This document shows, in pieces, positions 71 through 59,073 of a stretch of DNA of 64,000 bases (within the stretch, counting starts at the first letter, position 1; the number at the start of each line of letters is the position of its first letter). Under the pieces are notes generated by a model. The model was not told where the DNA came from. It made no database searches and saw nothing but the letters and a program-made list of their open reading frames with translations. Both the position numbers and the translations under genes were made by a program. The DNA is from Candidatus Omnitrophota bacterium (GTDB lineage Bacteria; Omnitrophota; Gorgyraeia; Gygaellales; Profunditerraquicolaceae): contig JBAZTA010000003.1 of assembly GCA_041662125.1 (NCBI GenBank), positions 7,992-71,991 of the forward strand. The letters are read 5' to 3'.

Positions 71-1603
71 ATGAAGAAATTCCCTGTATTACTTATATGT
101 TTTGTTCTTATGTTCCCGTTACTTGCGCCTGCTCAAGGGGTAACGGGAAAAGTCATAACGTTAGATGTTAAAGATATCGATATTGCTGATGTTATCCGTA
201 TGATCGCTGATCAGAGCGGGATGAATATCGTTGCTTCGAAAAATGTGCAGGGGGCGGTATCGATCAGTTTAAACAATGTCCCGGTAGAGGTCGCGCTTGA
301 ATCCATATTAAAAGTAAATAATTGCGCCTATATTAAGGAAGGCGATGTTTTGGAGGTTTATACCCTCGCTGAACTAAAGCAGAAAGAGCAGTTTGCCCGT
401 CAGACGACGCGTATTTTTACCTTGCAAAATGTGAAGGCTGTTGATCTTAAGCCGATGTTGCTGTCGCTTAAATCCCCGTTAGGAAGGGTTGAAGTCGAAC
501 CGAAATCCAATCGTGTCATTGTCAGCGATATTGAAGAAAATATGAACACCTTTGATGAGGCGATACGCGAAATCGACCGAAAGATGGAGACGAAAGTTTA
601 CCGCCTTAATTATGCTAGGCCTATTGATCTGCAGAAAAATATCCTGGGGATCATTCCTGCTACTGAAGGGGATGTCCTCGTTGATGACCGCACGAATAGC
701 CTTGTGGTTACTGCTTCGCCGCTTTTATTGAATAAGCTTGATGTATTAATACGCAGCTGGGATAAGCAGGTCCCGCAGGTGTTGATAGAAGCTAAAATCA
801 TGCAGGTCACGTTGGAAAAAGGAAAATTTGTCGGATTGGATTGGAAGTATCAAAATCCCGAATCTTATTCCGTTACTGTGGGCGCAAAAGATTTGCCTAT
901 ACCGACAGGCGCGACCTACGTTGAAGCTTTTAAGATCGGTGTCCTTGATCAGGATGATTATCAGGTTACCTTACGGACCCTGGAGAAATCAAGTGACGCG
1001 AACTTGATCTCAAGCCCCAGTATCGTCGCACTTGAAAACCAGGAGGCGCGGATCCTGATAGGATCGAGTGAGCCTTATGAGGTGTTTCATTACGACGCTG
1101 AAGGCCATGTAACGGGTAAGGAGCTTAAGTTTGTGGAAGTCGGTATAAAGTTGACGGTAATTCCTAAAATTTCCGATGACGGCTATATTACGATGACTAT
1201 TCATCCGGAAGTAAGTACTCCCCGGATAGGGACGGCAACTAACGCTTTAGCTATTGATACCACCGAAGCAACGACTGTGATGACTGTTAAAAACGGCAAT
1301 ACCGTGGCCTTAGGAGGCCTCATAAAGGATGAAAAAGAAAAGCATATTGCGCGCGTTCCGATACTGGGTGAGATCCCGCTTATTAAGTACTTGTTTCAAA
1401 ACAGTTTTACAAAAATCGTAAAAAAAGAGATCATTATTTTTATCACTCCGCACATTATAGGTGGGGACCGAAAAACCATCCCCTTTACCGAATCCGGGTT
1501 TTCAGCAATGAGGGATGACGCAATGGTAAAAGCTATAGGTATATTCGCGCCTCAGGCGACCGCCGATATCAGAAATAAACGTGAGAAAAAAAATAAAAAA
1601 TAA
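71..1603 (+). CDS. Secretin (PilQ/GspD family) outer-membrane channel
   Basis: N-terminal signal peptide (MKKFPVLLICFVLMFPLLAPAQG). Secretin_N-like repeats and a C-terminal secretin domain (VTASPLLLNKLDVLIRSWD, ISSPSIVALENQEARILIGSSEPY, VPILGEIPLIKYLF). Confidence 0.85.
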   Translation: MKKFPVLLICFVLMFPLLAPAQGVTGKVITLDVKDIDIADVIRMIADQSGMNIVASKNVQGAVSISLNNVPVEVALESILKVNNCAYIKEGDVLEVYTLAELKQKEQFARQTTRIFTLQNVKAVDLKPMLLSLKSPLGRVEVEPKSNRVIVSDIEENMNTFDEAIREIDRKMETKVYRLNYARPIDLQKNILGIIPATEGDVLVDDRTNSLVVTASPLLLNKLDVLIRSWDKQVPQVLIEAKIMQVTLEKGKFVGLDWKYQNPESYSVTVGAKDLPIPTGATYVEAFKIGVLDQDDYQVTLRTLEKSSDANLISSPSIVALENQEARILIGSSEPYEVFHYDAEGHVTGKELKFVEVGIKLTVIPKISDDGYITMTIHPEVSTPRIGTATNALAIDTTEATTVMTVKNGNTVALGGLIKDEKEKHIARVPILGEIPLIKYLFQNSFTKIVKKEIIIFITPHIIGGDRKTIPFTESGFSAMRDDAMVKAIGIFAPQATADIRNKREKKNKK

Positions 1604-2360
1604 CCTTTGGGTAATTATTTCTTTTTTAGTAATTATCTTTTTGACCAGCGTTAGCCTCCAAAATAAGAAGTTCCTATCTTTGAGTTTTTCCAAAAGCCGC
1701 GATATCCCATTATTAAGCCAGGTTGACAAGAACCAAAGCCTTAATAAAAGCGTATTAAAAATCGGGGCAAAAAATAATGCGCGTTTTGATCCGCGCCTAA
1801 AATTGTTAGGCACTATAGTGGGTAATCCTTCGCTTGCGTATGTTTTTAATCTTGCAAGCAATAAAAATGAGTTTTATCGAGTTGATGATATGATCAATGA
1901 TGTCCAACTTGTCGGTATTGGATCAGGGAAGATCCTTTTGAGTAAGTTGGGTGTCACTCAAGAATTAGCATTGGGCCGAGAGGGGGCAAGGTTTGAGAAT
2001 CCGTATATTGCCGAAGAGAAGAGTAGGGATAATGAAATCGTGATCAGTAAGTCTTTTGTGTTTGAAGAGGTTAAAAGAGCAAATGAAATATTAAGGACGG
2101 TCAAGATCCTTCCTATACCGGATGAGGGTCCTACTAATCGATTAAAAGGATTCAGGATCGATAATGTGCCTGGAGGAAGTATTTTTGATAAGGCTGGATT
2201 AAAAAGTGGAGATGTGATCTGTTTTATTCAGGGGCAGAGGCTGGAAAGCGCTTTAGAAGCTGTCCGCATATTCCATACGGTTCAGAATCAGCCTGAGGTT
2301 AAGGTTGATTTGATGAGGAATAATGAAATGTTGACATTGCGATATAAAATCAGAAACTAG
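1581..2360 (+). CDS. GspC/PilP-like secretin-associated protein with C-terminal PDZ domain
   Basis: N-terminal TM helix, a central region similar to a GspC homology-region beta domain, and a PDZ-like C-terminus (GGSIFDKAGLKSGDVICFIQGQRL). Its position between the secretin and GspE supports the assignment. Confidence 0.45.
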   Translation: MRKKIKNNLWVIISFLVIIFLTSVSLQNKKFLSLSFSKSRDIPLLSQVDKNQSLNKSVLKIGAKNNARFDPRLKLLGTIVGNPSLAYVFNLASNKNEFYRVDDMINDVQLVGIGSGKILLSKLGVTQELALGREGARFENPYIAEEKSRDNEIVISKSFVFEEVKRANEILRTVKILPIPDEGPTNRLKGFRIDNVPGGSIFDKAGLKSGDVICFIQGQRLESALEAVRIFHTVQNQPEVKVDLMRNNEMLTLRYKIRN

Positions 2361-2371
2361 CCAGGGTAGAA

Positions 2372-4072
2372 GTGAAGATGAATAAAAAAATCGATCTAGA
2401 AAAAGAATTAAAGGAAAATCTTAAAATAAAAGATAATCTCTGGAAGGAATGCCTGCAAGAACAGGAAAATTCAGGTGATCTTTTAAGTAGGATCATGATC
2501 AGTAAAGGATTAGCGAGTGAAGATGACCTGCTTTTCTTGTTTTCTCGCCTGTTGAAGATCCCCTATATAAGAATTAAAGAACTGGATATCGATATTGAAT
2601 GTATTAAGAAAATCCCCGCGAAATTAGTAAAACATTATAATTTCTTCCCCCTTAAACAAGTTAACGGAAAGTTAAAGGTCGCGATCAGTGACCCCAGCGA
2701 TATCGTGCTGCTTGATGAGATCAGGCTTTTTTTAGGTGAGAATATTGAGTTTGTTATCGCTAGTTCTAAGAATATTTTAGAGTCAATTCAAGAGTTCTAT
2801 GGCTTAGGCGCGGAAACGTTAGAAAAGATGGTTACGGATGCGTCTATTGACCTGGAAATATTAAAGACGAAAAGCGATGAAGATATAAAAGATGCCACTC
2901 TTGATCCTACGGTTATTAAATTCCTCAATGAAGTTCTTGTTGAGGCAATAAAAAAACGGGCGACCGATATCCATCTTGAACCCTTTGAAGAAGAGTTGAG
3001 GATCCGCTATAGGATAGATGGCGTTTTGTATGAAGTGCCGTGTCCGGCTTCAATCAAACATTTTCAATCTTCGATCGCATCCAGGATTAAGGTTATGGCA
3101 AGCCTTGATATTACGGAAAAGCGCAGGCCCCAGGACGGCAGGATCAAGGTCCGTATGGGAAATGAAGTTTTTGATCTGCGTGTTTCGGTGTTACCGACTC
3201 CTTTTGGGGAAAGTATCGGGATAAGGATACTTTCACGGGGGACTCCGTTAATTGGGCTCGAACAATTAGGAATGCCTGTGGAAACGTTGAATATTATTGA
3301 AGAGGCGATTGTTAGGCCGTATGGGATAATTTTAGCTACCGGGCCAACGGGGAGCGGTAAAACAACCACGCTTTATTCTTGTTTAAGTAAAATAAATTCC
3401 GCACAACGAAAAATAATTACCGTTGAAGACCCCATAGAGTATCAATTAAAGGGTATTACTCAGATGCAGGTGGAGCCGAAGATCGGCTTTACCTTTGCCA
3501 CTGCGCTGCGTTCAATGTTGCGCCATGACCCTAATGTCATGATGGTTGGCGAGATCCGCGATACCGAAACTGCGGAATTGGCGGTAAGGACTTCTTTGAC
3601 CGGGCATTTGGTTTTTAGTACCCTGCATACAAATGACGCTGCCGGGGCAATCGCGCGGCTTTCAGATATGGGAGTTGATACATTTTTGGTTTCTTCTTCG
3701 ATCAATCTGATCATCGCGCAGAGATTGGTAAGGCTTATTTGCCCTGATTGTAAAGATGAAGTTTCTCCTCAGCAAGAATTTTTGCAGAAATTTGATGCTA
3801 ACGATAAACTTAATATACAGTTTTACCATGGCAGCGGATGTGAAAAGTGTCGTTTTACCGGATATCAAGGCAGAAGTGGTATTTTTGAAGTGCTGGTTGT
3901 AAATGATGATATAAAGGCAATGATCCTTAATAATGTCGCCCCGAATAAGCTGAAACAAAAAGCCATTTCTTTAGGGATGAAGACATTACGTGATGCTGGT
4001 TTGGAAAAGGTAAAAAAAGGGTTGACTACGTTAGAAGAAGTAGTCAGGGTGACGCAAGAAGAAGAGGGGTAG
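2372..4072 (+). CDS. gspE: Type II secretion / type IV pilus assembly ATPase (GspE/PilB family)
   Basis: T2SSE N-domain and Walker A GPTGSGKTTT. Asp and His boxes (VMMVGEIRDTETAELAVRTSLTGHLVFSTLHTND). Tetracysteine Zn motif CPDC...CEKC. Confidence 0.9.
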   Translation: MKMNKKIDLEKELKENLKIKDNLWKECLQEQENSGDLLSRIMISKGLASEDDLLFLFSRLLKIPYIRIKELDIDIECIKKIPAKLVKHYNFFPLKQVNGKLKVAISDPSDIVLLDEIRLFLGENIEFVIASSKNILESIQEFYGLGAETLEKMVTDASIDLEILKTKSDEDIKDATLDPTVIKFLNEVLVEAIKKRATDIHLEPFEEELRIRYRIDGVLYEVPCPASIKHFQSSIASRIKVMASLDITEKRRPQDGRIKVRMGNEVFDLRVSVLPTPFGESIGIRILSRGTPLIGLEQLGMPVETLNIIEEAIVRPYGIILATGPTGSGKTTTLYSCLSKINSAQRKIITVEDPIEYQLKGITQMQVEPKIGFTFATALRSMLRHDPNVMMVGEIRDTETAELAVRTSLTGHLVFSTLHTNDAAGAIARLSDMGVDTFLVSSSINLIIAQRLVRLICPDCKDEVSPQQEFLQKFDANDKLNIQFYHGSGCEKCRFTGYQGRSGIFEVLVVNDDIKAMILNNVAPNKLKQKAISLGMKTLRDAGLEKVKKGLTTLEEVVRVTQEEEG

Positions 4073-6768: not shown

Positions 6769-7293
6769 ATGAAGAAATTATTAATAGCGTTATTGTTAGT
6801 TGTAGGAGTATTTGCTCTTTCCAAGTCTGCGTTCGCAATACCGTACGCTGATGTCATTAACTACAATTCTCTTATGACAATTGGAATGAGCCACACGTAT
6901 AATTTTAATCTCAATACTGATACTTTGCTCGATGGGGATATTAATGCTGAAGACCAAATTAATTCAGCTGCACTGGCAATTAGCTTTTTTGATGATGAGA
7001 CTGATACGTGGAGACCATCTACTTGGGAACTATCATTGATTGATGTCGATAGTGACCTATACTTATGGGATACTGGTACTTTTCAGGCTAATGTTTACAA
7101 TAGAGTGGTCAATGATCATCAGTTGGAAGTTACCGTTACTAGCTTGTGGGGTGATTTTAATTTAGGTAATGCTTCGTTATCTGGTGATTATACGAATTTG
7201 CCTACTACAGCTCCGGTTCCTGAACCGGCTTCATTGTCTCTTTTAGGTATTGGTTTGTTGGGTTTATTGGGTGGTTTACGAAGGATTAACTAG
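6769..7293 (+). CDS. PEP-CTERM sorting-domain secreted protein
   Basis: Signal peptide. C-terminus reads TTAPVPEPASLSLLGIGLLGLLGGLRRIN followed by stop. Confidence 0.88.
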   Translation: MKKLLIALLLVVGVFALSKSAFAIPYADVINYNSLMTIGMSHTYNFNLNTDTLLDGDINAEDQINSAALAISFFDDETDTWRPSTWELSLIDVDSDLYLWDTGTFQANVYNRVVNDHQLEVTVTSLWGDFNLGNASLSGDYTNLPTTAPVPEPASLSLLGIGLLGLLGGLRRIN

Positions 7294-48205: not shown

Positions 48206-51200
48206 ATGAGTATTGCAAAGCCAAAATATTATCTTAATGCCGCCAATGAATTTGTCATAGAAAACTATAATCTTGCTAAGCCGTTTGCTAATTTTTTTCC
48301 CGGTATTGCGGGCAAATATGGTATACCGATGTGGGCTTTTTATGTCAACCGGGGCCAGGCGATCGCCAGTTTTGGCATAAAAGATAAAGATAACGCGATA
48401 CTTGAATTTCAGCCTGCAAATAAAGCCTGGGAATCGGTTTTTTCTCATGGTTTTCGTACGTTCTTGAAAGTTATGACTAAACAAAGCTTTAGGATCTATG
48501 AGCCATTTCGCTGTGGGTTCGTCAATGAGTCATATGTGGTGTCTAATAAAATGGTTATGACTTCATATGGTTTGAGGCTGGAAGAAATTAATCGGACCTT
48601 GGGATTACGCATTACGGTAGAATATTTTACGGTCCCTCAGGATTCTTACGCAGGGCTTGTCAGGAATGTGACTATTTCTAACTTGTCAAAATCAGCGAAG
48701 TCAATCGAACTTATCGATGGCCTGCCTCAAATCGTTCCCTTTGGCGTCAATAATTTTTTCTTAAAGAAAATGAGCCGGACGATCGAAGCCTGGATGGTTG
48801 TGGAAAACTTAAAATCCGGAGTCCCTTTTTATAAATTAAGCGTTGATCCTGCCGATAAGCCTGAAGTGGTCCATATTGAGCAAGGAAATTTCTATTTGGG
48901 TTTCCACTATGAAAATGGATCGCCTCAGATCATTACTCCTTTGGTTGATCCGGAGTCTGTTTTCGGACCCGGTAATGATTTTTCATATCCTCGAGCTTTT
49001 ATCGCTGCCCGGAAATTTACCTCCTCAGGCACGATGAGCTTTCGCAATAAGACTCCCTCTGCGTTTATCCCGTTATCCTTCCAGCTGCCCGGGGGAGGGC
49101 ATAAGGATTTCCACTGTGTAGCCGGAAATATGCGTAATCTCGGTACCCTGAACGCTTCGATCAAACGGATAACTGCGTCAGGATATCTGGAAAAGAAGAA
49201 AATAGAGAATAAAAGCACGATCGAAGAATTAGAGGTGAATATCAATACCAAAAGCGCAAAGAGGGAATTTGACCTTTACGCGCGTCAGACCTATCTTGAT
49301 AATATTATGCGCGGCGGTTATCCGATCATTTTTGTTTCTCCTCAGTTTGCCCGTAAACCTTTGAAAGCGGAATATCACGCCGCAGTTTTCTACCTGTATT
49401 CCCGTAAACACGGAGATTTAGAACGGGATTATAACCGGTTCTTGATCCAACCGAGTTGTTTCTCTCAAGGCAACGGTAATTACCGCGATGTAAATCAAAA
49501 CAGGCGTTGTGATGTATGGTTTAACCCAAATATTAAAGAAGAGAACATTGTTTCTTTTTTTAATTTACTTCAGTCAGACGGGTATAATCCTTTAATGGTT
49601 AAAGGCGATAGGTTTGTATTAAAAGATCCGGATATGTTCAAAGATGTATTGCTCAGCGTTATGTCAGAGCAGGATACCGTGCTTTTACTTTCCTTTTTGC
49701 GCCACCCTTTCAACCCGGGAGAATTGATCTTTTTCCTTGAAGAGCATGGCATTAAGTTGAGCGTTTCCCAGGACCAGTTCCTTAATATCATTTTGTCTCA
49801 CTCCAGCAAAAACCAGGAAGCAGAGCATGCTGAGGGGTTTTGGACCGATCATTGGACGTATAATCTTGATTTGCTTGAAAGTTATCTTGGAGTCTATCCT
49901 GAGAAGCTAAAAGAAATCGTATTTGAAAACAGGAAATTCACATTTTTTGATAACGCTGAAGTCGTTAATCCCCGAGATAGGAAATATGTCCTCTCTGGTG
50001 ATTCTGTGCGTCAATTCCACGCGGTTTCTCTTGACCATGACAAGAAAAATATGATAGCTCAAAGGGTAACTGATGCGCATCTCCTCCGTGCTTCTTATGG
50101 GACAGGTGAAATCTATAGGACGACGTTGATCAATAAGTTGGTTTGTCTTGTGTTTAATAAGATGTCTTGCCTTGACCCGTTTGGGGTAGGTGTTTCGATG
50201 GAAGCAAATAAGCCTAACTGGTTTGACGCGTTAAACGGCCTGCCTGCCCTCTTTGGCTCTTCGTTGTGTGAGACATTCGAATTAAAACGGTTAGTGCAGT
50301 TTATTCGGGATACGCTGGTGAGCTTGAGCGTACAAACGATAGGTTTGGAAGAAGATATTTGCGCTTTTCTTGTCAAACTGGGAGCATTGATAGAAGCGTC
50401 TCTATCCGGCGGCAGCGATGCTGATTTTCTTTATTGGGATGCCAGTAATACTCTTAAAGAGGAATATCGTCAGAAAACAAAGCTGGGTTTGAGCGGGAAA
50501 GAATCAGAAATAAACGCTCAAGAATTGCTCTCTATTCTTTCGCACGCATTGGTGAAACTTGATCAGGGCATCGCGAAAGCCTTTGATAAAAAATCACAGA
50601 CATATTCTTCATATTTTATTAATGAAGTTGTAGCGTATGAGCCTTTAGAAAAACCGTATGTTCGAGCGACCAAGTTTCAACAAAAGCCTCTGCCCCTCTT
50701 TTTGGAAGGACATATGCATGCGTTACGTTTAACCCGGGATAAAGAAAGCGCCCAGGCGTTATACCAGGCAACCAAAAAAAGCCCGCTTTACGACAAAAAA
50801 CTGAAAATGTATAAAGTTACTGCCTCTCTTAAGACTATGCCTGAAGAGATCGGCAGGTGCCGTATTTTTACTCCCGGGTGGCTTGAAAATGAATCTATAT
50901 GGCTGCATATGGAATATAAATATATATTAGAGCTTTTGAAACGCGGATTGTATAAAGAATATTTTGCGGAATTTAAGTCGGTACTTATTCCCTTTCAGAA
51001 CCCCGAGCGTTACGGACGCAGTATCCTGGAAAATTCATCCTTTCTTGTCAGCAGTGCTTTCCCTGACAAGAAACTGCATGGAAACGGTTTTGTCGCCAGG
51101 CTTTCCGGTTCTACGATCGAATTTATCAATATGTGGTTGATTATGAACCTGGGGCATACTCCCTTTTGCTTAGATCAAACAGGACAGTTGCAATTGCGGA

Positions 51201-51457
51201 TCAATCCTATTTTACCGGGATGGTTATTTGACGTGAAAGGCTCGTATATGTTCCATTTCTTAAGTTCCGTTGTGATAACCTATCATAATCCGAAAAAGAA
51301 AGATACCTTTGGGAACGCTGGCGTATCAGTTAAACGGATCAGTTTTAAAGATGAATCTGGTTATCAGGTCATCCTTGATTCTGATATAATTCCTGCGCCC
51401 TACGCCCTTGGCGTGCGTAACCGCCAGATAACCGCTCTTGATATATACTTGGAATAA
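48206..51457 (+). CDS. Large cytoplasmic protein (1083 aa), function unknown; possible glycoside hydrolase/phosphorylase-like fold
   Basis: Long uninterrupted ORF preceded by an AAGGAG RBS. No signal peptide or TM helix. Only weak, unverifiable resemblance to the N-terminal region of GH94-type phosphorylases. Confidence 0.55.
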   Translation: MSIAKPKYYLNAANEFVIENYNLAKPFANFFPGIAGKYGIPMWAFYVNRGQAIASFGIKDKDNAILEFQPANKAWESVFSHGFRTFLKVMTKQSFRIYEPFRCGFVNESYVVSNKMVMTSYGLRLEEINRTLGLRITVEYFTVPQDSYAGLVRNVTISNLSKSAKSIELIDGLPQIVPFGVNNFFLKKMSRTIEAWMVVENLKSGVPFYKLSVDPADKPEVVHIEQGNFYLGFHYENGSPQIITPLVDPESVFGPGNDFSYPRAFIAARKFTSSGTMSFRNKTPSAFIPLSFQLPGGGHKDFHCVAGNMRNLGTLNASIKRITASGYLEKKKIENKSTIEELEVNINTKSAKREFDLYARQTYLDNIMRGGYPIIFVSPQFARKPLKAEYHAAVFYLYSRKHGDLERDYNRFLIQPSCFSQGNGNYRDVNQNRRCDVWFNPNIKEENIVSFFNLLQSDGYNPLMVKGDRFVLKDPDMFKDVLLSVMSEQDTVLLLSFLRHPFNPGELIFFLEEHGIKLSVSQDQFLNIILSHSSKNQEAEHAEGFWTDHWTYNLDLLESYLGVYPEKLKEIVFENRKFTFFDNAEVVNPRDRKYVLSGDSVRQFHAVSLDHDKKNMIAQRVTDAHLLRASYGTGEIYRTTLINKLVCLVFNKMSCLDPFGVGVSMEANKPNWFDALNGLPALFGSSLCETFELKRLVQFIRDTLVSLSVQTIGLEEDICAFLVKLGALIEASLSGGSDADFLYWDASNTLKEEYRQKTKLGLSGKESEINAQELLSILSHALVKLDQGIAKAFDKKSQTYSSYFINEVVAYEPLEKPYVRATKFQQKPLPLFLEGHMHALRLTRDKESAQALYQATKKSPLYDKKLKMYKVTASLKTMPEEIGRCRIFTPGWLENESIWLHMEYKYILELLKRGLYKEYFAEFKSVLIPFQNPERYGRSILENSSFLVSSAFPDKKLHGNGFVARLSGSTIEFINMWLIMNLGHTPFCLDQTGQLQLRINPILPGWLFDVKGSYMFHFLSSVVITYHNPKKKDTFGNAGVSVKRISFKDESGYQVILDSDIIPAPYALGVRNRQITALDIYLE

Positions 51458-51683
51458 TGTGTTTAGGGTAAAATGATACAGGTTGACTTTGGTAAAATAA
51501 TACTTTCGAAAAAGTGGCAATTTGTGTAAATATGTGTTATATTTAAATTGGAGATAGGAACAAGGGCGTTTGGCCCAAGTTTGGTTTGACAATTTCGAGT
51601 ACTGTAAAAGGCAAACTAGCAGTAATGCTAGGGCGCAAAGCGACAGCCCCGATTAAGTAATCGGGGGGCTGCGTTGCCAGAAG

Positions 51684-51716
51684 GAAACCCTAAAGAATTC
51701 CTTTAGGGTTTTTTGT
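51684..51716 (+). terminator. Rho-independent terminator GAAACCCTAAAG-AATT-CTTTAGGGTTTTTT
   Basis: Perfect 11-bp stem, tetraloop, and a T-run. Confidence 0.65.
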
Positions 51717-51761: not shown

Positions 51762-51774
51762 TTTGGGGGGTTGT

Positions 51775-52035
51775 ATGAAAAATAACTTTTATCAGGATAA
51801 AAGTCAAAGGGTGGTTACCTTCTTAAACAGGGATGAAGTTGATTTCCTGGATAAATTAGGCAAAGATGCCCTTTTTTCTTCAGGATTAAAACTTTCCCGG
51901 GCAAAATTGATCGCCTGGTTGATAGATTTTACCAAAAAACTGAATATTGACGGTCAAAACTTAAGGTCAGAAGAAGATTTTGAAAACAGGATCCTGGAGG
52001 TTTTGGGCTATACTAAATCCCACCAGCCACGGTAA
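51775..52035 (+). CDS. Small hypothetical protein (about 86 aa)
   Basis: ATG at 51775 (MKNNFYQDK...). The ORF track begins at an upstream in-frame TTG at 51763. Confidence 0.35.
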   Translation: MKNNFYQDKSQRVVTFLNRDEVDFLDKLGKDALFSSGLKLSRAKLIAWLIDFTKKLNIDGQNLRSEEDFENRILEVLGYTKSHQPR

Positions 52036-52096: not shown

Positions 52097-52429
52097 ATGA
52101 AAAGAGATCTTATGATCGCAGCGATTATATCCTTAATGGTGATGGGTAGTGTGTATGCAGAAGGCGCATCTTTTTCAATGAGCTGTACCATCCCTTCTAT
52201 TCCTGGAGTAAATGCGCCGATGATCGCCACTGATACGCAAAAGGTTCAAAATGACTCTGCTCAAAGCCAGAGCGGACAAGAGACTTCAAGTGACATGCCT
52301 CATATACAGAAGGATGGCTCAAGTGTTCAGGGCCAGGCAACAGACATAATCCAGCAGGAGAACAAAAAAGAACAGGAATTAAATACTACAGGTGTTATTG
52401 TTATGGTAAAGACATTATACAGCCGTTAG
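52097..52429 (+). CDS. Small secreted Ser/Gln-rich protein
   Basis: Signal peptide MKRDLMIAAIISLMVMGSVYA followed by a low-complexity mature region. Confidence 0.4.
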   Translation: MKRDLMIAAIISLMVMGSVYAEGASFSMSCTIPSIPGVNAPMIATDTQKVQNDSAQSQSGQETSSDMPHIQKDGSSVQGQATDIIQQENKKEQELNTTGVIVMVKTLYSR

Positions 52430-52441
52430 AAAAAAACACTG

Positions 52442-55234
52442 TTATGATTGGATTTTTTTAAGCGGGATATTGTAGATGTATGTAGCGCCTTCAAAGAGTT
52501 GAAATTCGTGGGTAATCGCTGACTTTGGCAGGTAGTAGATAGGCAGGCTGTTGAGGTCCAGGTTAATGGTATGCTTGCCAACGCTGACGTTGGGATAATA
52601 AAATTTACCTGTGCTGTCCGTAGTTATTTGTTTGCCGTTTTCTAATGTAATTACTGCTCCTGATACAGTTTTATCCTTAGCAAGAGTGTACTTGCCGTCA
52701 TTGTCGGTATCTTCAAAAACCGTGCCGGATACTTCCGCGCGTGAAATAATGCCGAAATCCACTCGAGCGATACGATGCTGTGAAAGAAGCACCTCTTGGC
52801 TTACCGGGACGGTTAATACAAAGCCCGGTAATAAGCTTGAAGTATCAAAGCTTACGTATGCTTTATGAGCTTTGATCTTCCTGAAGCTATAATAACCAAA
52901 GACATCGGTTGTCATATAATCATCATTTCCTAACCAGATCTTTGCTTGATATACGGGAGCTTCATTTTTCTGCATTAACCCATCGGAATTCTCATCTTTA
53001 AATACGTATCCTTCAATATTGCCTACGGTTTCCCAGCGATAGTTGCTATCCCACATGCAGCGCATGCCGACGTTAAAGTTTGCTTCAATACGTTTATCTA
53101 CCGTTTCTTTATCAGCCCAGATGTTCCTGATCGTCGTTGCAGCGTAAATTTCATTATAGTCAGTTGCCCTGTAGGTTAATTCAAGGTGGCCTTCTATTGA
53201 ATCTTCTCCAGAAAGAAACCCTAACGTGGAATCAGCGCTTTCTTCGTCACGGTAATAAAATCGCATGTTCCCATAAAAAGGAGTGGCGCCGATTTGACTG
53301 TAGTAGTCAACTCCGGTTTCAGTCGCATGCGGGTGATAGTGCACACCCGAGGCATCTTCTTTCAGCAAATTAAGTTCTTTATTGGCGTAAAAGTAAAGCG
53401 CGTCAATTAAATTAAAACGAATTCCCGCGAAGAACCTGTCATTTACGTAGTCAGAAGCAGGGGAAGAAAAATTATTGCTGATCTGATGGTAATAATTAGC
53501 AAAACCATACATATCTTTCATGAAATACATTTTCTGCGTGATGCCTAAGCCGGTTGTAATGTAACGGCTTTGCGCTAGTTTACCTAGATCATTCTGTAAA
53601 GAATAGTTAAAATTAAGGTTAGTATCGGGGGTAGACTGATAAGAAGTGTTCCAGTTGAAGTCTTCATTCAGGCGGTTGGGCTTCTCTTCTGCGGGGTAAA
53701 GCCGCTCTTTATAAATATCAAGGCTGCCATAGGTATTCCATAATTCATCGGGTTGATAATTGACGCTCAATATCCCGCCTATTTGTCCTTGTGCCCAACC
53801 GTTTCCGGTAATGCTTTGAAAAGCAGTATCCACATTCCTGAATGAGATGCTTGAGTTAGCCAGCGGCCATTTTTGATGAGTTTCAAAAACATGGGCAAAA
53901 GTTTCTGAATCATTGGCAATTTCATAATGTGCTCCCCATTTGTCAAAATTCCAGGTATTATAGAGGTCATATCCATAGGGGTTCAAGTCTTCTCCCCGGT
54001 CTCTTCCGTGTCCGTGTACAACGGTAAATTTATAGTTTTGGTGTTGTGTGGGTGTAAGGCTGACATTGGCACCTTCAAGGAAGGAGTTCTTAGTTTTACC
54101 TAAACTGGGTGATAAATTGCCATAACGCCCGCCGCCTTCTCTTCCCCAAAATAGAGTGTAATCGAGTTTTTTGTTAAATACAGGAGTGTTGAAGCTGATG
54201 CCGCGTAATTGTGAGCCGGAAAAAGCTAAATTGGAAAATGGCAATGAATAATCAAATCCGCGCAGGGAAAAATCTTTAAAGAATTTAAATCTGCCATTGG
54301 TCAAGCCTATGGTATAGTACGTAAGATCCGTGCTCGTAGCTACAGATCTTACGGTTGCCGCTGAGTCAAAATCTCCGTATGGTGTTTGTCCGGTTACTCT
54401 CAGGCCGTGGATCCATGAGTATGCAGTCCTGCGTAACGTGTTTTTTCTTAACCTCCTGCCTGTTTCAAAGGAAGACCAGTCAATAGAATAATACCATTTG
54501 AAGCTGCGGGCTAATTCTTCCTCTTGCTTGCGTAATTCTTCAAAGGTAGGCGCTTCAGGTTTAGGAAATATACCTAAGAAATCAACTGTCCAGCGGTCTT
54601 GAGCATCCCATACATGCACATAGGAATAACCGATCTCTTTGCAGGTTACTAAAACTTCATTATCATTTCTTCTGGTGACCGTAACGATATCAGGCTGGGT
54701 GGCTAAGAATCTTTGAATATTGCTCCCTCTGATAATTATGCTCCGGTCTTGTTCCAGTTCAATGGGTTTCGGGATATCTTTAAAGGTTTCATCCAAAACC
54801 ACGAGGCCAGGCACAGAGGTTTTTTCTATACTTACTTTGGCAGTGTCAAATTCCGGTATATATGATTGCCGGGTTTCTTGCGGGATAGCTTTATATCCAG
54901 GGCTTACTTTTGAATAATCAGCATCTGGTATTAGATCAGAAGCTTCTTGAAGGCCGGAACTTTCTGTTTGGATAGGATAAATGGAATCTGGTGTTTGTGG
55001 TTGCTCTCCTTGTTCTTCTTGAATGATGGCGATGTATTTTAAAGCGAGTTTATTATCGGGTTGCGCTAAAAGAGCATTTTTAAATTCATAGAGCGCGTCA
55101 TCGTATCTTCCTTCGAGGTAAAATTGCAGCCCGAGCTGGCAGAGGTATTCCGGTACACAGGTATATGCGTATACAGGTAAAATAGCTGCGTGTAAAAAGA
55201 CAGATATAAGAATAAGAGCAAAAAATTTACGCAT
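52442..55234 (-). CDS. Large outer-membrane protein: signal peptide, TPR region, central aromatic/Gly-rich predicted beta-barrel, two C-terminal CarboxypepD_reg/Cna-B-like beta-sandwich domains
   Basis: Signal peptide MRKFFALILISVFLHAAILPVYA. TPR region (YLCQLGLQFYLEGRYDDALYEF). About 550 aa rich in Y/W/G/N alternating strands. C-terminal domains VSGTVFEDTDNDGKYT and GYVFKDENSDGL. Confidence 0.6.
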   Translation of the reverse strand: MRKFFALILISVFLHAAILPVYAYTCVPEYLCQLGLQFYLEGRYDDALYEFKNALLAQPDNKLALKYIAIIQEEQGEQPQTPDSIYPIQTESSGLQEASDLIPDADYSKVSPGYKAIPQETRQSYIPEFDTAKVSIEKTSVPGLVVLDETFKDIPKPIELEQDRSIIIRGSNIQRFLATQPDIVTVTRRNDNEVLVTCKEIGYSYVHVWDAQDRWTVDFLGIFPKPEAPTFEELRKQEEELARSFKWYYSIDWSSFETGRRLRKNTLRRTAYSWIHGLRVTGQTPYGDFDSAATVRSVATSTDLTYYTIGLTNGRFKFFKDFSLRGFDYSLPFSNLAFSGSQLRGISFNTPVFNKKLDYTLFWGREGGGRYGNLSPSLGKTKNSFLEGANVSLTPTQHQNYKFTVVHGHGRDRGEDLNPYGYDLYNTWNFDKWGAHYEIANDSETFAHVFETHQKWPLANSSISFRNVDTAFQSITGNGWAQGQIGGILSVNYQPDELWNTYGSLDIYKERLYPAEEKPNRLNEDFNWNTSYQSTPDTNLNFNYSLQNDLGKLAQSRYITTGLGITQKMYFMKDMYGFANYYHQISNNFSSPASDYVNDRFFAGIRFNLIDALYFYANKELNLLKEDASGVHYHPHATETGVDYYSQIGATPFYGNMRFYYRDEESADSTLGFLSGEDSIEGHLELTYRATDYNEIYAATTIRNIWADKETVDKRIEANFNVGMRCMWDSNYRWETVGNIEGYVFKDENSDGLMQKNEAPVYQAKIWLGNDDYMTTDVFGYYSFRKIKAHKAYVSFDTSSLLPGFVLTVPVSQEVLLSQHRIARVDFGIISRAEVSGTVFEDTDNDGKYTLAKDKTVSGAVITLENGKQITTDSTGKFYYPNVSVGKHTINLDLNSLPIYYLPKSAITHEFQLFEGATYIYNIPLKKIQS

Positions 55235-55251
55235 ATGCTTATGATTGCTGT

Positions 55252-56169
55252 CTATTTGAGCGCTCCGATCTTTGTTACTTCCCCGTTTTGGTTAATTTCG
55301 ATCTCTGTTTCTTTAAGCATGATAGGCCCGCGGCCTAAACTTGCTTCCTCCACTGCTTTTCCCAGATTAATGGTTAAGACGACATTATAGACTCCTGCGG
55401 GGATGGAATCTTTCCAGGTAGAAGATATTTCCGCTGTATCGCCGGGCAGTGTATAGACAGGGTTAAATTCTCCGCGCGCGTAAATCATGCCTTTTCTATC
55501 CGTGATATGATAGGTGCTTGCGGTCGTAATATCAGCATCTCCGGTATTCTTTAGATCAGCAGAAATGATGAAATACTTATTTTTTGAATCTTTAGTGATA
55601 GAGAGTTTTTGCAGTTCCGCGCTGCGGTTTATCGCTCCTTTTACATCAACATAAAACAATGAGCCCAGCCGGATATCAAGGCCAACTCCTGATTTTATTG
55701 TTTCTTGCGATTGACCGATCTCAAAGCCTCTGCTATCCGCAGTACTGGTTTCAAAAAACATAACTCCTACATGGCTGCCTTTTGCGTTAGCCGGCACGGT
55801 AATCACATAGTTGATCGCTTGAACGCCGTAAGGAGAAAGCGTGAATTCTGCGGGGCTGAATTGTATCCAGCTGGCACAGGTGAACGCGGAAGTATTGGCA
55901 GGCATAAATTCTTTAGAGCCATCTTGTATTTTTTCATAGATCCAATCTTCAAAATAAACCTTAAATCTTAAGGTTTCGTTGGTCTGGCTGTACGCTTTTA
56001 CGATCCCTGATTGTGAGCCGCCCGGCGCCAGGAGCGCGCGGACTTTAGATTTATCGAGCCTATAAGAAATACCCTGGGCATTAACCGTTGTTATGAAACA
56101 ACAGGCAAGAATCGACATAAAACTATTGCATACTATCCGCTTTAACACTCTATCAACTCCTTTAAGCAA
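55252..56169 (-). CDS. Secreted two-domain beta-sandwich protein; candidate periplasmic chaperone-like component
   Basis: Signal peptide (the true start is probably MSILACCFITTVNAQG at ~56118). N-domain pattern R..L.......G.V.......L.F.V.FEDW is reminiscent of PapD-like chaperones. Confidence 0.4.
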   Translation of the reverse strand: MLKGVDRVLKRIVCNSFMSILACCFITTVNAQGISYRLDKSKVRALLAPGGSQSGIVKAYSQTNETLRFKVYFEDWIYEKIQDGSKEFMPANTSAFTCASWIQFSPAEFTLSPYGVQAINYVITVPANAKGSHVGVMFFETSTADSRGFEIGQSQETIKSGVGLDIRLGSLFYVDVKGAINRSAELQKLSITKDSKNKYFIISADLKNTGDADITTASTYHITDRKGMIYARGEFNPVYTLPGDTAEISSTWKDSIPAGVYNVVLTINLGKAVEEASLGRGPIMLKETEIEINQNGEVTKIGALK

Positions 56170-56278
56170 AAATTAAAAAACCTCAGGATACTAAAGAATT
56201 AAATCCTTTAGTATCCTGAAGTTATGTTATTTCTATACTGTTAGCCTGTAGTGTTCCATTAGGCAATAGTATAAAATA

Positions 56279-56980
56279 TTATTGCCATTCTGTCAATGTA
56301 ATTCTAACACTGCCAGAATAGGTTCCTGCTAAGGTTCCTTTGTCTATGGCAGTCCAACCAGTAGGCCTGGTTTCACCTGTTTTCGCAAACGGAGGAATTC
56401 CGTATTCAGCGCGAACAATCCTTGCCCTCTTGGCTTTTAAAATGCGGTTATGGCCGGTAGTTATATCTTTTGCAAGATACGTAACACCTAATTGAGGATT
56501 CAAGGTTATTTCCGCTGCGGTCAAAGCGCCTTGTTCTGGCCCGGTTGTAGAGTATTTGTCTTCTTTGGCATATACGGCAGTCCTTACAACTGCATCATCA
56601 ATTGCACTTGGAAAAGTTTGCGTGGTCTGCTGAAGGTCATATCCTTTTCCGCCCCAGCAATCAGGGAACATATAGATGATGAAAAAATCTTCAGCGTAGA
56701 AACAACCTGCGTCTCCTGTTTCAACGCCTGCAGTGTCTTTGAGTGAATGTGTTAAGGTGCCGAAATTCATGGTTGTTACTGAGCCAAGATTGGTGCATTG
56801 TGTCCAGGGGTTACCGGTTGCAACATAACTATACCCCTTGCATTTGAGCACTGCGTGGTCTCCAAAGCTGCTGCCAGAGTCAGCTACGGCATTGACACTT
56901 AAAGTAATGTCGGCAAACGCCAAAGTTGCGACTCCCAGCGCGCAGAGTACTATGAGCATTATTCCTAGTGTTTTCTTCAT
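56279..56980 (-). CDS. Secreted subunit-like protein with C-terminal AGTYSGSVRITLTEWQ strand
   Basis: Signal peptide MKKTLGIMLIVLCALGVATLAFA. C-terminal G-x-Y-x-G-x-(V/L)-x-(I/V)-T-L motif like the SCPU/DUF4402 family. Confidence 0.5.
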   Translation of the reverse strand: MKKTLGIMLIVLCALGVATLAFADITLSVNAVADSGSSFGDHAVLKCKGYSYVATGNPWTQCTNLGSVTTMNFGTLTHSLKDTAGVETGDAGCFYAEDFFIIYMFPDCWGGKGYDLQQTTQTFPSAIDDAVVRTAVYAKEDKYSTTGPEQGALTAAEITLNPQLGVTYLAKDITTGHNRILKAKRARIVRAEYGIPPFAKTGETRPTGWTAIDKGTLAGTYSGSVRITLTEWQ

Positions 56981-57053
56981 GTTTACTGCCCTCCTTTTAG
57001 GGTTGTGAATAGTTAGTTTTTTGAAATTTAAAGCTTAAATCAAACCACCTCCT

Positions 57054-58466
57054 TTATATTTCCGACAAGGAATATGTGATTCTGGTTGAATAGTTTCCAG
57101 CTTTGAGCTCTTTAGGAAAATTTAATTCGTAAATTATTTTAAATGAATCAGGGGATCCTTCTGCGTCTGAGAGAAGCAGGGTCATTTCTCCTTCTTTTAT
57201 CGCTTGAGGTTGCAGGTAACGTAAGCTCCCCTTTGTTGAAAGGCTTTCAGTTTTTAAGGTAAAGTTTGCTTCAGGGACAATTTGCCCTTCTCTGCTGGTC
57301 AGAAGCGTGAACAGCTTTTGATTGACTTGATAGCGCTTTCCTATATTTGATTTTATTGTTAAGGTAACTTCTCTTGGTTTTGCGGGTTGATTGGGTTTAA
57401 GATTACGAAACTCCAGCGAACCGAGTTGATCCTCGGGAGCTATGGTTAAGTCAAAGGCGCGTTCATTTTCCAACTCTAGGGTAAAAGTGTCAAGATTTGT
57501 CAGGTTACCCATTTCTTCCAGGGAGAATTGGATCTTAGTAGTATAATTACCCGCGGTTTGTTTAGTCAGGTCATTGAGCGAGTAGGTAATGATAAACGTC
57601 TTGTCAGCTTTTCCGTCAGGCAGTGAACTATAGAGAATTTGTCTACCGGAAGATAAATTTTTCTCTAAACTTTCCGCTGTTCCCATAGTGGCTTCTTTTA
57701 TTGCGAATTTAACGGCTTCATAACCAAGACTGTTGCCTTCTTTTGATTCCAATGGCTGCAGGATTGTCTGCACTATCTTGAATTGTTGAGAGAACGTGCC
57801 GCTTATGGTAACCAAAATATCGCCTGATTGGGTCTCGGTTTTCTTGGGATTTAAGGCGATCCTTTTGTTCCCTGAAACTGTCGAGAATTGGATGCTTTTG
57901 TTCTCATCTTTTGTTTGAGCTTGCGGGACAGTTGCCGATATATCAATGTATTTAACTACGTACGGCCTGGATGAACCGATCGGTTTAAGGGTTACACTGA
58001 GCTGGCCTGTATAGTATCCCGCTTGCAAGGTGGTAATATCGTTTACACTCAGAACCAAGGTTATGCTGTCGGCGCTGCCTGTTGTGTTGGAAACATATAT
58101 GGCCTGAGAAGTTCTTACTGGTGCATCGTTTGAAGGTAAGCGAAAGTCTCCGAATTGGTTGGTTCCCCGGATCCCTCTGACGACAAAGTTGTCTCTTATG
58201 GTGACATTGGGTTTATCCCTGTTTTCTAAGGGCCTGACAAGCGCTAATTCAATCTCATAGCGCGTAGCTACGTTTGAAGTAACGTTGATTTTGATACCTT
58301 TAGCTGGATTGACCTGGTTAAACTCTACTCGAAAACCGCCTTCAGTAAGGCTGTAGGATATGTCAAAAATATCCGCAGCTGATGCAGTTATAACAGAGCA
58401 GAAAAGCATTACGCTGCACAGTATTAGTATGTTCTTTAAGGTTGTTTTTTCTGATGTTTTAATCAT
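57054..58466 (-). CDS. Secreted protein with three tandem subunit-like domains, each ending in a G-x-Y-T-x-x-(I/L)-x-(V/F/Y)-(T/S)-L motif
   Basis: Signal peptide. Internal repeats AGYYTGQLSVTLKPI, AGNYTTKIQFSLEEM and AGNYSTRITYSLSEI. A sigma-70 promoter TTGACA-N18-TATAAT lies upstream at ~58475-58505 on the minus strand. Confidence 0.5.
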   Translation of the reverse strand: MIKTSEKTTLKNILILCSVMLFCSVITASAADIFDISYSLTEGGFRVEFNQVNPAKGIKINVTSNVATRYEIELALVRPLENRDKPNVTIRDNFVVRGIRGTNQFGDFRLPSNDAPVRTSQAIYVSNTTGSADSITLVLSVNDITTLQAGYYTGQLSVTLKPIGSSRPYVVKYIDISATVPQAQTKDENKSIQFSTVSGNKRIALNPKKTETQSGDILVTISGTFSQQFKIVQTILQPLESKEGNSLGYEAVKFAIKEATMGTAESLEKNLSSGRQILYSSLPDGKADKTFIITYSLNDLTKQTAGNYTTKIQFSLEEMGNLTNLDTFTLELENERAFDLTIAPEDQLGSLEFRNLKPNQPAKPREVTLTIKSNIGKRYQVNQKLFTLLTSREGQIVPEANFTLKTESLSTKGSLRYLQPQAIKEGEMTLLLSDAEGSPDSFKIIYELNFPKELKAGNYSTRITYSLSEI

Positions 58467-58740
58467 TGTCTCACCCAGGCTTATTATAGTACTATTTGCC
58501 TTAAAATGTCAATAACTTTATTAAACTTTTTACGTTCGTTCTGGTATAAAAAACAAAAAGCCGGATTGACCCTTTTCGTCAATCCGGCTTGAATTTCCGT
58601 GGCATTTCCCGATTACCTCCATAATCGAGAACACCGGACCCAAAAGATTTTAAAACATTTTTTAAAGTTTACAACTTCTTTACTATTTTGTCAAGCTGTT
58701 TCTTCCTTTTTTTTTGTAATAGGCTGTGGCAAATATCCTA

Positions 58741-59073
58741 TTAACAATGAGTTGTTTTATTTATGGCGCTCAGGTTTATTTTTAGTGAATGAGTGAAAAG
58801 TACAAGTGCCGGAGTGCCATTGTTAATAATATAAAAACCGCCTTTTATCTTGCAAAAGAACTTCTCCATCTGTCTTTTTTGGTTCTTTTCTTTTAAGACG
58901 TAAAGATATGGTTTTGGTTTAGCCGGTATTTTCCCATTTATTCTTTTGACAATATATATGAAATGCCGTTGAATTACAGTCCTGATCCCTTCTTTGTCTG
59001 CGGTTTCGGAACTGGTAATTATCCTTCGGTTTTTGTTTGGTGACGTTAAGTTCCGGTATAATAGGTCTCGCAT
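58741..59073 (-). CDS. Hypothetical 110-aa protein
   Basis: Open frame bracketed by two related hairpins. No motif recognised. Confidence 0.25.
   Translation of the reverse strand: MRDLLYRNLTSPNKNRRIITSSETADKEGIRTVIQRHFIYIVKRINGKIPAKPKPYLYVLKEKNQKRQMEKFFCKIKGGFYIINNGTPALVLFTHSLKINLSAINKTTHC

Follow-up and report, generated by a model that had tools for sequence, protein, structure and literature searches.

The minus strand of a 64,000-nucleotide stretch of DNA from a Candidatus Omnitrophota bacterium (assembly GCA_041662125.1, contig JBAZTA010000003.1; the window, meaning that whole stretch) carries a four-gene operon that appears to encode the parts of a surface-fibre assembly system related in design to the chaperone–usher (CU) pili. 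An earlier note, made from the sequence alone, placed four open reading frames (ORFs) at 52442–58466, and the ORF list contains all of them. The first is S470 (57054..58466, minus strand, 470 aa), a secreted protein of three domains that is proposed as the tip or first subunit, and it is followed by S233 (56279..56980, minus strand, 233 aa), a small pilin-like protein proposed as the polymerising major subunit. Next come C305 (minus strand; 55252..56169 as a 305-aa ORF opening with TTG, or 55252..56148 as 298 aa from a GTG), a two-domain, immunoglobulin-like (Ig-like) chaperone-like protein, and O930 (52442..55234, minus strand, 930 aa), an outer-membrane usher-like protein. NCBI names O930 a "pilus assembly protein N-terminal domain-containing protein" and each of the other three a "hypothetical protein". 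Read from the sequence, all four N-termini are Sec-like, with a basic n-region, a hydrophobic core and AxA-like sites, in agreement with the signal peptides assigned earlier. The recurring motif strands that the note had quoted occur verbatim, three in the 470-aa protein (AGYYTGQLSVTLKPI, AGNYTTKIQFSLEEM and AGNYSTRITYSLSEI) and one in the 233-aa protein (AGTYSGSVRITLTEWQ), and the FEDW that it had pointed out in the 305-aa protein lies at aa 73–76.

Translation of C305 more likely begins at the GTG at 56148 than at the TTG, because the shorter form has a proper basic n-region and agrees with the NCBI entry MFA6217072.1 and with the homologues; a 20-bp hairpin that overlaps the TTG of the 305-aa ORF also supports the downstream start. 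The family alignment comprises 52 sequences, in all of which D75 and W76 of the FEDW motif are invariant, and was used for an AlphaFold2 (AF2) model with a mean predicted local distance difference test score (pLDDT) of 90.3. The earlier note had made its proposal depend on a two-domain Ig-like fold, and the model has one: two beta-sandwich domains, with a single disordered loop at aa 146–160. Its best Foldseek match in the PDB is WxLIP of Enterococcus faecium (9i1y/9i25, E 5e-12), including WxLIP in complex with a WxL protein, and second is CfaA, the CFA/I chaperone (6k73/4y2o, E 6e-11, template modeling (TM) score of 0.62–0.65 on the target). RbmA, FimC, Caf1M, DraB, CupB2 and FaeE follow, and the Foldseek probability is 1.00 for WxLIP, CfaA, FimC, Caf1M, DraB, CupB2 and FaeE. 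Two residues of C305 are nearly invariant, K42 in the first strand and R167, which comes after the alternating V162/L164/I166 in the strand behind the long loop; as a sequence pattern this appears to resemble R8/K112 and the G1-strand arrangement of PapD. The predicted fold is chaperone-like, and we infer a chaperone function.

Sequence searches with C305 point in two directions. Among known chaperones the family profile finds EcpB of the E. coli common pilus only (E 8e-4, in the strands on either side of the long loop), which we take to be grouped with the class 5, or alternate (alpha), chaperones. PapD_N and PapD_C (PF00345/PF02753) match neither C305 nor any of its 52 homologues at E up to 0.1; JGI labels three of the homologues PapD. 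A profile search of 1.84 billion representatives returned 10,221 clusters at E up to 1e-3, a very large superfamily, of which the best 150 were listed. The only Pfam family reached above threshold is WxLIP_PGBD, which some sequence relatives of C305 pass; in the 52-member family itself 15 sequences match it weakly, and C305 falls below threshold.

It might therefore be proposed that the operon encodes a WxL/WxLIP-like surface-display complex and not a polymerising pilus, with C305 stabilising S233 and S470, O930 exporting or holding them, and monomers or small oligomers standing on the surface. WxLIP proteins of Firmicutes (DUF916–DUF3324; PF06030 plus PF11797) are the best structural match of C305, and they have been proposed to stabilise and complete a partner by inserting a beta-hairpin (PMC10599100). 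In monoderms, however, WxLIP is anchored in the membrane and acts on WxL proteins bound to peptidoglycan, whereas C305 lacks the C-terminal membrane helix and would be soluble, no WxL domain is found in the subunits, and an outer-membrane barrel of usher-like design lies in the same operon and is always present. The small pilins, moreover, combine a donor-like strand at the N-terminus with an open end at the C-terminus, as head-to-tail polymerisation needs. A display complex thus seems unlikely.

O930 has Pfam matches to TPR, to PF13629 (the pilus-formation N-terminal region, above threshold), to SdrD_B and to CarboxypepD_reg, and its AF2 model (pLDDT 83.8) arranges these along a chain with a signal peptide ahead. 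TPR helices (aa 23–75), which make up only ~1.5 repeats, sit on a disordered linker or tether (77–139) that leads to a beta N-domain corresponding to PF13629 (143–222) and a helix (231–241). A barrel follows at 246–729, with 26 DSSP strand segments (~26 strands), no inserted domain, and an 18-residue low-confidence loop (aa 367–384) as its sole irregular insert, and the chain ends in two beta-sandwiches, one SdrD_B-like (737–831) and one CarboxypepD_reg-like (834–927). The 11 best Foldseek matches of the model in the PDB are all FimD or PapC ushers (E 6e-20 to 2e-13 over ~770–810 aligned columns), headed by 3rfz_B (E 6e-20). On its own the FimD barrel (3ohn_A) is matched at E 6e-11 with a TM-score of 0.49; among barrels other than ushers, TonB-dependent receptors come first, at ~5e-9, and AlgE reaches ~2e-7. 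As predicted, the architecture is usher-like in its succession of N-domain, large barrel and two C-terminal beta-sandwiches, and O930 would serve as the assembly pore. It had been described before as an atypical usher with a TPR region and with CarboxypepD_reg/Cna-B-like domains instead of the canonical C-terminal ones. The TPR, SdrD_B and CarboxypepD_reg matches agree with the domains named there, but the two sandwiches occupy the places of the usher C-terminal domains CTD1 and CTD2, so O930 is more usher-like than had been thought.

At the level of sequence, Usher (PF00577) matches neither O930 nor any of 53 homologues, and the O930 family profile searched against PDB sequences finds no usher, only pieces of TPR, SdrD and Tad-secretin N-domain proteins. 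A homologue search with the barrel alone recovers 16 members of its own family and gives no bridge to Usher or to another outer-membrane protein family. O930 might then be the exporter of some other substrate, for instance an exopolysaccharide porin of the PgaA, BcsC or AlgK–AlgE kind, next to which the Ig-like proteins are merely co-located. The N-terminal TPR and the presence of AlgE among the Foldseek matches would agree with such a porin, as would cyclic di-GMP (c-di-GMP) control (see below), which is typical of exopolysaccharide systems. Yet the usher matches are co-linear over ~800 columns and, at best, at least 11 orders of magnitude better than that to AlgE, the TPR comes to no more than ~1.5 repeats, carried by a disordered tether, the conserved locus contains no gene for a glycosyltransferase or polymerase, and O930 strictly co-occurs with chaperone and pilin genes, all of which makes a porin very unlikely.

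S470 comprises a signal peptide (aa 1–30) and three domains, D1 (31–165), D2 (186–320) and D3 (338–470), in each of which the pattern AGxYxG...TL recurs: AGYYTGQLSVTLKPI at aa 149–163, AGNYTTKIQFSLEEM at aa 305–319 and AGNYSTRITYSLSEI at aa 456–470, the C-terminus. When the family alignment of 54 sequences was cut into three segments, profile–profile comparison matched the segments to one another at E 1e-32, 7e-29 and 5e-25; the protein is a tandem triplication, and with such values the repetition of the motif is not chance. Strand-like linkers of ~12–20 residues follow D1 and D2 and align with each other in the D1–D2 profile alignment. Linker strand 1, YVVKYIDISATV (57927..57962, minus strand; aa 169–180), comes after the D1 motif strand and is the proposed in-cis G strand of D1; linker strand 2, LDTFTLELENE (57462..57494, minus strand; aa 325–335), comes after the D2 motif strand and is proposed for D2 in the same way. 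D3 stops right after its motif strand AGNYSTRITYSLSEI (57057..57101, minus strand), with a C-terminus conserved in all 54 homologues, and because S470 ends there, without the strand that follows D1 and D2, D3 looks like an open acceptor groove. D1, for its part, starts directly after the signal peptide at the same position as D3 starts after linker 2 (IFDISYSLTEGGFRVEF versus AFDLTIAPEDQLGSLEF), and S470 therefore has no spare N-terminal strand. From these sequence patterns it appears that the first two domains would be completed in cis by the following strand and that the third would be open.

The sole PDB matches of the S470 family profile are three CFA/I constructs engineered for donor-strand complementation: a CfaB trimer (3f85, E 4.8e-6), a CfaE–CfaB fusion (3f83, 4e-5) and 3f84 (3.6e-3). 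In the alignments to the CfaB fusions the S470 motif strand falls on AGNYSGVVSLVM, and the linker is aligned with VEKNITVTASV, the donor strand grafted into these constructs. The NCBIfam model CPR_Pam_pilin_C (NF058581) matches 33 of the 54 homologues at E up to 1 (best E 2.6e-8), and DUF4402 (PF14352) is found below threshold in two of them.

S233 belongs to a single fast-evolving family with a variable middle, ~60 homologues of which stand at the same position. One or two of these small pilin genes (190–260 aa) lie between S470 and C305, or upstream of S470 in one clade, and every locus examined has at least one. Common to the proteins are a signal peptide, two successive strands at the mature N-terminus, the first an alternating one that is typically xVxVxAxVP, the conserved motifs FGTL and RIIRAxY, and (A/P)GxYxGxVTxTLT at the extreme C-terminus. 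In all of them the motif strand is the last, unlike in D1 and D2 of S470, where another strand comes after it. In S233 the mature N-terminus DITLSVNAVA (56882–56911, minus strand) is the proposed donor strand and AGTYSGSVRITLTEWQ (56282–56329, minus strand) the last strand. The family is homologous to the S470 domains (hhalign E 1.7e-10 to D1 and 1.6e-7 to D3), and other classes include single-domain S470-like proteins of 174–199 aa with an extra strand–P–strand N-terminus, for example TVQVTATILPRLELSVEP. DUF4402 gives sub-threshold matches to 6 of 60 small pilins (best E 7.8e-4), SCPU (PF05229) matches neither small pilins nor S470 homologues, and an NCBIfam scan of the small pilins gives nothing meaningful.

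The arrangement could be read the other way around, with S470 as the main fibre unit or base anchor and the variable small pilins as tip or adaptor. S470 is the more conserved of the two, some loci have several small pilin genes together with extra ~500-aa proteins, and the small pilin N-terminal strand aligns ambiguously on the first strand of S470 D1; its profile placement on an S470 linker, where linker 1 is picked, is insignificant (E 0.088). A D1 that starts where D3 starts nevertheless leaves S470 no strand to donate, the single-domain S470-like proteins with an extra N-terminal strand show what a polymerising version looks like, and the hairpin behind the small pilin gene would suit a major subunit made in large amounts. 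We regard reversed roles as quite improbable.

Strand exchange between beta-sandwich pilins is also how FimA/Mfa pilins polymerise, and a type V pilus of the Bacteroidota kind, built from protease-cleaved lipoprotein pilins without chaperone or usher, would share that feature. There is no conserved lipobox cysteine in the small pilins and no FimA/Mfa family match, however, and a dedicated chaperone-like protein and an usher-like barrel are both present, so that a type V pilus can be considered extremely unlikely. It was rejected along with the exopolysaccharide porin, on the grounds of the chaperone and usher-like barrel and of usher matches far above that to AlgE.

A genome scan with the chaperone family gave 77 loci (designated here by L numbers), nearly all labelled Omnitrophota and including the complete genome of Candidatus Velamenicoccus archaeovorus (locus at NZ_CP019384, 1117294–1134091). 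The order S470, small pilin or pilins, C305, O930 is kept in essentially all loci with enough flank. The labels Elusimicrobia, Margulisiibacteriota and "Planctomycetales" that some metagenome-assembled genomes (MAGs) bear may be mislabelled or placeholder names. In L076, from a MAG labelled Acidobacteriota, an O930-type protein with PF13629, barrel, SdrD_B and CarboxypepD_reg (529–3570, plus strand) stands beside a C305-like gene, and here either the bin bears a wrong label or the system extends beyond Omnitrophota. Many related loci hold two or three chaperone paralogues, and some have extra ~500-aa proteins upstream of S470 with a small-pilin-like domain (loci listed for paralogues or extra proteins: L004, L008, L013, L015, L019, L027, L055, L069, L071, L073; L007, L057, L062, L064, L066), which suggests minor subunits with dedicated chaperones.

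Together these observations make it probable, in our judgement, that the operon encodes a divergent chaperone–usher-like machine for assembling a thin fibre on the cell surface through donor-strand complementation and exchange; the central claim of the earlier note, a CU-type fibre assembly system with an atypical usher, thus finds support in the C305 fold, the PDB matches of O930 and the domain shared by the subunits. Sec export would carry all four proteins across the inner membrane, as their N-termini suggest, and in the periplasm soluble C305 would cap the open groove of newly exported subunits. S470, with D1 and D2 completed in cis by their own following strands, would enter first and become the distal tip, since a protein whose D3 ends at its last strand and which has no N-terminal donor strand can only accept. 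Small pilins of the S233 type, with an extra N-terminal strand and an open C-terminal end, would polymerise head-to-tail beneath it. The outer-membrane assembly pore would be O930, co-linear with the usher layout of N-terminal domain, barrel, CTD1 and CTD2.

Support is strongest for the predicted C305 fold and O930 architecture and weaker for the donor-strand roles proposed for the subunits, and several observations weigh against this interpretation. The families by which CU systems are usually recognised in Pfam (PapD_N, PapD_C, Usher, Fimbrial and SCPU) match no protein of the operon, and of the searches that the earlier note had suggested, those for SCPU, PapD_N, PapD_C and Usher came back empty for all of the proteins. 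The TM-scores of O930 to ushers are modest, 0.3–0.4 over the full length and 0.49 for the barrel, and its model, with ~26 strands, lacks the plug domain that is inserted between strands 6 and 7 of the 24-stranded usher barrel; given this strand number, the missing plug and these scores, it is possible that the likeness to ushers arose by convergence instead of homology. The similarity of S470 to CfaB is at the level of the motif, and because profiles of D3 alone and of the small pilins match nothing in the PDB, the link is confined to the junction of strand and linker. An incomplete Ig fold and a donor-strand role for the subunits would follow from patterns in their sequences, and the fibre itself is a prediction from genes and modelled structures. 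In the Omnitrophota literature searched there is no link to chaperone–usher systems, the main survey of the phylum covering type IVa and Tad pili only. Finally, the closest structural relative of C305 has been described as a surface-anchoring protein and not as a pilus chaperone (PMC10599100).

Of the described CU systems the nearest in logic is the class 5 CFA/I pilus: the fibre system would work like a class 5 pilus but is a sequence member of no described CU family. CfaA is the best-matching pilus chaperone for C305, EcpB is the only chaperone that its sequence profile finds, and the S470 profile meets the CfaB fusions at last strand plus donor strand. The proposed logic is also that of CfaE and CfaB, in which a multi-domain tip without a donor strand is followed by a polymerising major pilin. 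Differences are plain as well, in that the locus proteins have no Pfam class 5 matches, the proposed tip is a triplicated pilin-like domain, and the gene order is tip, pilin, chaperone, usher, compared with cfaA-B-C-E. O930, besides, has no Usher signature or plug, ~26 strands versus 24, a PF13629 N-domain and a TPR, and the host belongs to Omnitrophota and not to Proteobacteria. Much the same holds for the classical systems (FimC/FimD, PapD/PapC), which provide the top 11 matches and the co-linear layout of O930 as well as the FimC and Caf1M matches of C305, while membership of PF00345, PF02753 and PF00577 is wanting, the plug is absent, the TM-scores are modest, and the putative donor strand of C305 comes after a long loop modelled with low confidence.

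The Pam pili of the Candidate Phyla Radiation (CPR) offer a further comparison. Their pilins PamA and PamB are multi-domain proteins with a linker strand for donor-strand exchange, their chaperones PamC and PamD are PapD/FimC-like, and the pilins are reported to be exclusive to CPR (bioRxiv 10.64898/2026.03.03.709456). The model of the truncated C-terminal Ig domain of Pam pilins is the one that matches 33 of 54 S470 homologues, but the S470 of the window scores 16.7 bits, far under the curated cut-off of 55, and the Pam system has membrane-anchored chaperones and no envelope-spanning machinery, whereas here a soluble chaperone is paired with an outer-membrane protein. The earlier assignment to an archaic, SCPU- or Csu-type system found no specific support. 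The C-terminal G-x-Y-x-(G/D)...T-V/L motif of the archaic (sigma) systems (Csu, CupE, spore coat protein U) is similar in style, and DUF4402 matches 6 of 60 small pilins and 2 of 54 S470 homologues weakly, but SCPU is not matched and no archaic-type chaperone or usher is among the best matches. The archaic link is weaker than those to class 5, WxLIP and Pam, which are the strongest found.

Regulation of the operon appears to be layered. The sigma-70-type consensus TTGACA-18-TATAAT that the earlier note had placed ahead of the first gene is real as sequence (58483..58512, minus strand). It lies 16 nt ahead of the S470 ATG and agrees with the consensus, as a sequence match only, at 12/12 positions; TTGACA...TATAAT-like sites occupy the same position in L001, L019b, L073, L002 and L003. 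Farther upstream lies a conserved promoter, TTGACA-17-TAAACT (58694..58666, minus strand), which opens a leader RNA element (58548..58694, minus strand, promoter included) of ~100 nt of RNA with its core at 58645..58548 and a sequence-conserved intrinsic terminator at 58590..58558 (minus strand). The promoter sequence therefore stands, but not the picture of a single promoter, since the perfect site lies downstream of a conserved promoter, a leader RNA and a terminator, and regulation must be more complex.

This leader is a previously undescribed conserved structured RNA; an Rfam search between plsY and S470 found nothing, and the leader is without an Rfam match. Its parts come in the order promoter (TTGACA-17-TATACT-like), UCCGG(C/U)A, long hairpin, UGCCACGG and terminator. 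The hairpin has a covarying stem and a conserved loop, (A/U)UGGAGG(U), with stem pairing of 85% as against at most 49% when the stem is slid and nine pairs changed on both sides, and the terminator sequence AAGCCGGAUUGAC...GUCAAUCCGGCUU is kept across species. A covariance model identified 21 copies on the forward strand in the window plus 16 loci, and copies are listed from L001–L005, L007, L009, L011, L013–L017, L019, L021, L022, L034 and L073; most of those checked are found ~30–150 nt ahead of a gene for S470 or a small pilin. The UCCGG at the 5' end could pair with the 5' arm of the terminator, to which it is complementary, and may thereby act as an antiterminator.

Between the S233 and C305 genes a 20-bp perfect hairpin with a T-run (56179..56223, minus strand, -27.7 kcal/mol) probably acts as a partial terminator that sets a high ratio of pilin to machinery and so would keep pilin in excess. 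A crude automated screen for hairpins of at least -10 kcal/mol strength ahead of a T-run found one behind the last small pilin gene in 21 of 51 loci, with clear cases in L044 (Velamenicoccus), L043, L045, L049 and L050. The arrangement resembles the differential expression reported for the pap and fim operons.

On the opposite strand, beyond the 3' end of O930, lies a c-di-GMP-I-GGC riboswitch aptamer (51601–51682, plus strand; RF03167, 62.3 bits against a gathering threshold of 59, E 3e-13), adjoined by a terminator-like hairpin (51682–51714, plus strand) upstream of two small genes, o90 and o110. Riboswitches of the c-di-GMP-I clan (Rfam CL00126) occur at homologous positions in 13 of the 16 related loci scanned, at 36.5–69.6 bits (L002, L009, L010, L011, L012, L014, L015, L017, L021, L022, L034, L036 and L050). 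In L050 the riboswitch (7071–7155) directly precedes the small pilin gene, in L009 it directly precedes o110, and in L002 a second copy precedes u110, a third small gene of the locus. Expression of the fibre would be tied to c-di-GMP through these riboswitches and to the leader RNA upstream of the subunit genes.

The gene o90 (51763..52035, plus strand, probably from the ATG at 51775) encodes a small, very highly conserved cytoplasmic protein, QRVVTFLNRDEVDFLDKLGKDALFS, and adjoins O930 in 23 loci by synteny. It has no Pfam, NCBIfam or PDB match; its strand-then-helix pattern could be that of a ribbon-helix-helix-type DNA-binding regulator. The product of o110 (52097..52429, plus strand) is a small secreted protein whose gene converges on the 3' end of O930, with only 12 nt between the two stops, so that the convergent transcripts may overlap. 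Its conserved mature N-terminus SFSMSCTIPSIPGVNAP (SFxVSCTIPAIPGVNAP) is donor-strand-like, and is followed by a variable acidic middle and a conserved C-terminus, VKTLYSR. A small-pilin hidden Markov model matches 21 of 26 o110 homologues, 1 of 90 chaperones and 0 of 76 O930 proteins, a score that in o110 is mostly gone once the signal peptide is removed. The protein may be a c-di-GMP-controlled pilus accessory; speculatively, it could cap, terminate or anchor the fibre by supplying nothing but a donor strand. The gene u110 (58741..59073, minus strand) sits immediately upstream of the leader RNA and would encode a small basic, K/R-rich protein of 110 aa without a signal peptide or a Pfam or PDB match; the ORF looks spurious yet is conserved, with up to 63% identity in 14 loci, and in every case it has plsY on one side and the leader RNA on the other. 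Its product might be a regulator, or it might bind the leader RNA as a partner.

A bolder reading, which we consider doubtful though worth stating, is that the operon represents an ancient, unrecognised branch of donor-strand fibres linking WxL/WxLIP, CPR Pam and proteobacterial CU systems. Its pore would be differently built, with no plug, ~26 strands, a Tad-secretin-type N-domain and a TPR tether, the riboswitch-driven o110 would cap, terminate or anchor the fibre, and the leader RNA with its GGAGG loop would gate subunit transcription.

To our knowledge, chaperone–usher pili are treated as a largely proteobacterial invention with few outliers. If the proposed machine is real, a phylum-wide version of it that is invisible to sequence families would extend the principle deep into candidate phyla related to the PVC group (Planctomycetes, Verrucomicrobia and Chlamydiae). 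These are ultra-small, possibly host-dependent or predatory bacteria, and they would gain an attachment organelle that current surveys, which cover type IV and Tad pili only, have missed. O930, having no plug and a different N-domain, would allow a test of which usher features are essential, and S470, if complemented in cis by nature, would mirror the construct built artificially for CfaB. The links to WxLIP and Pam suggest that the strand-complementing chaperones of monoderm, CPR and diderm envelopes form one superfamily, and both the c-di-GMP riboswitches and the new leader RNA can be tested directly as regulatory elements.

One further gene accompanies the pilus locus. A 1083-aa protein encoded at 48206–51457 (plus strand) has no Pfam match at E up to 0.001 and no PDB match; its synteny with the pilus locus extends to 16 related loci, with E = 0 wherever the copy is full-length.

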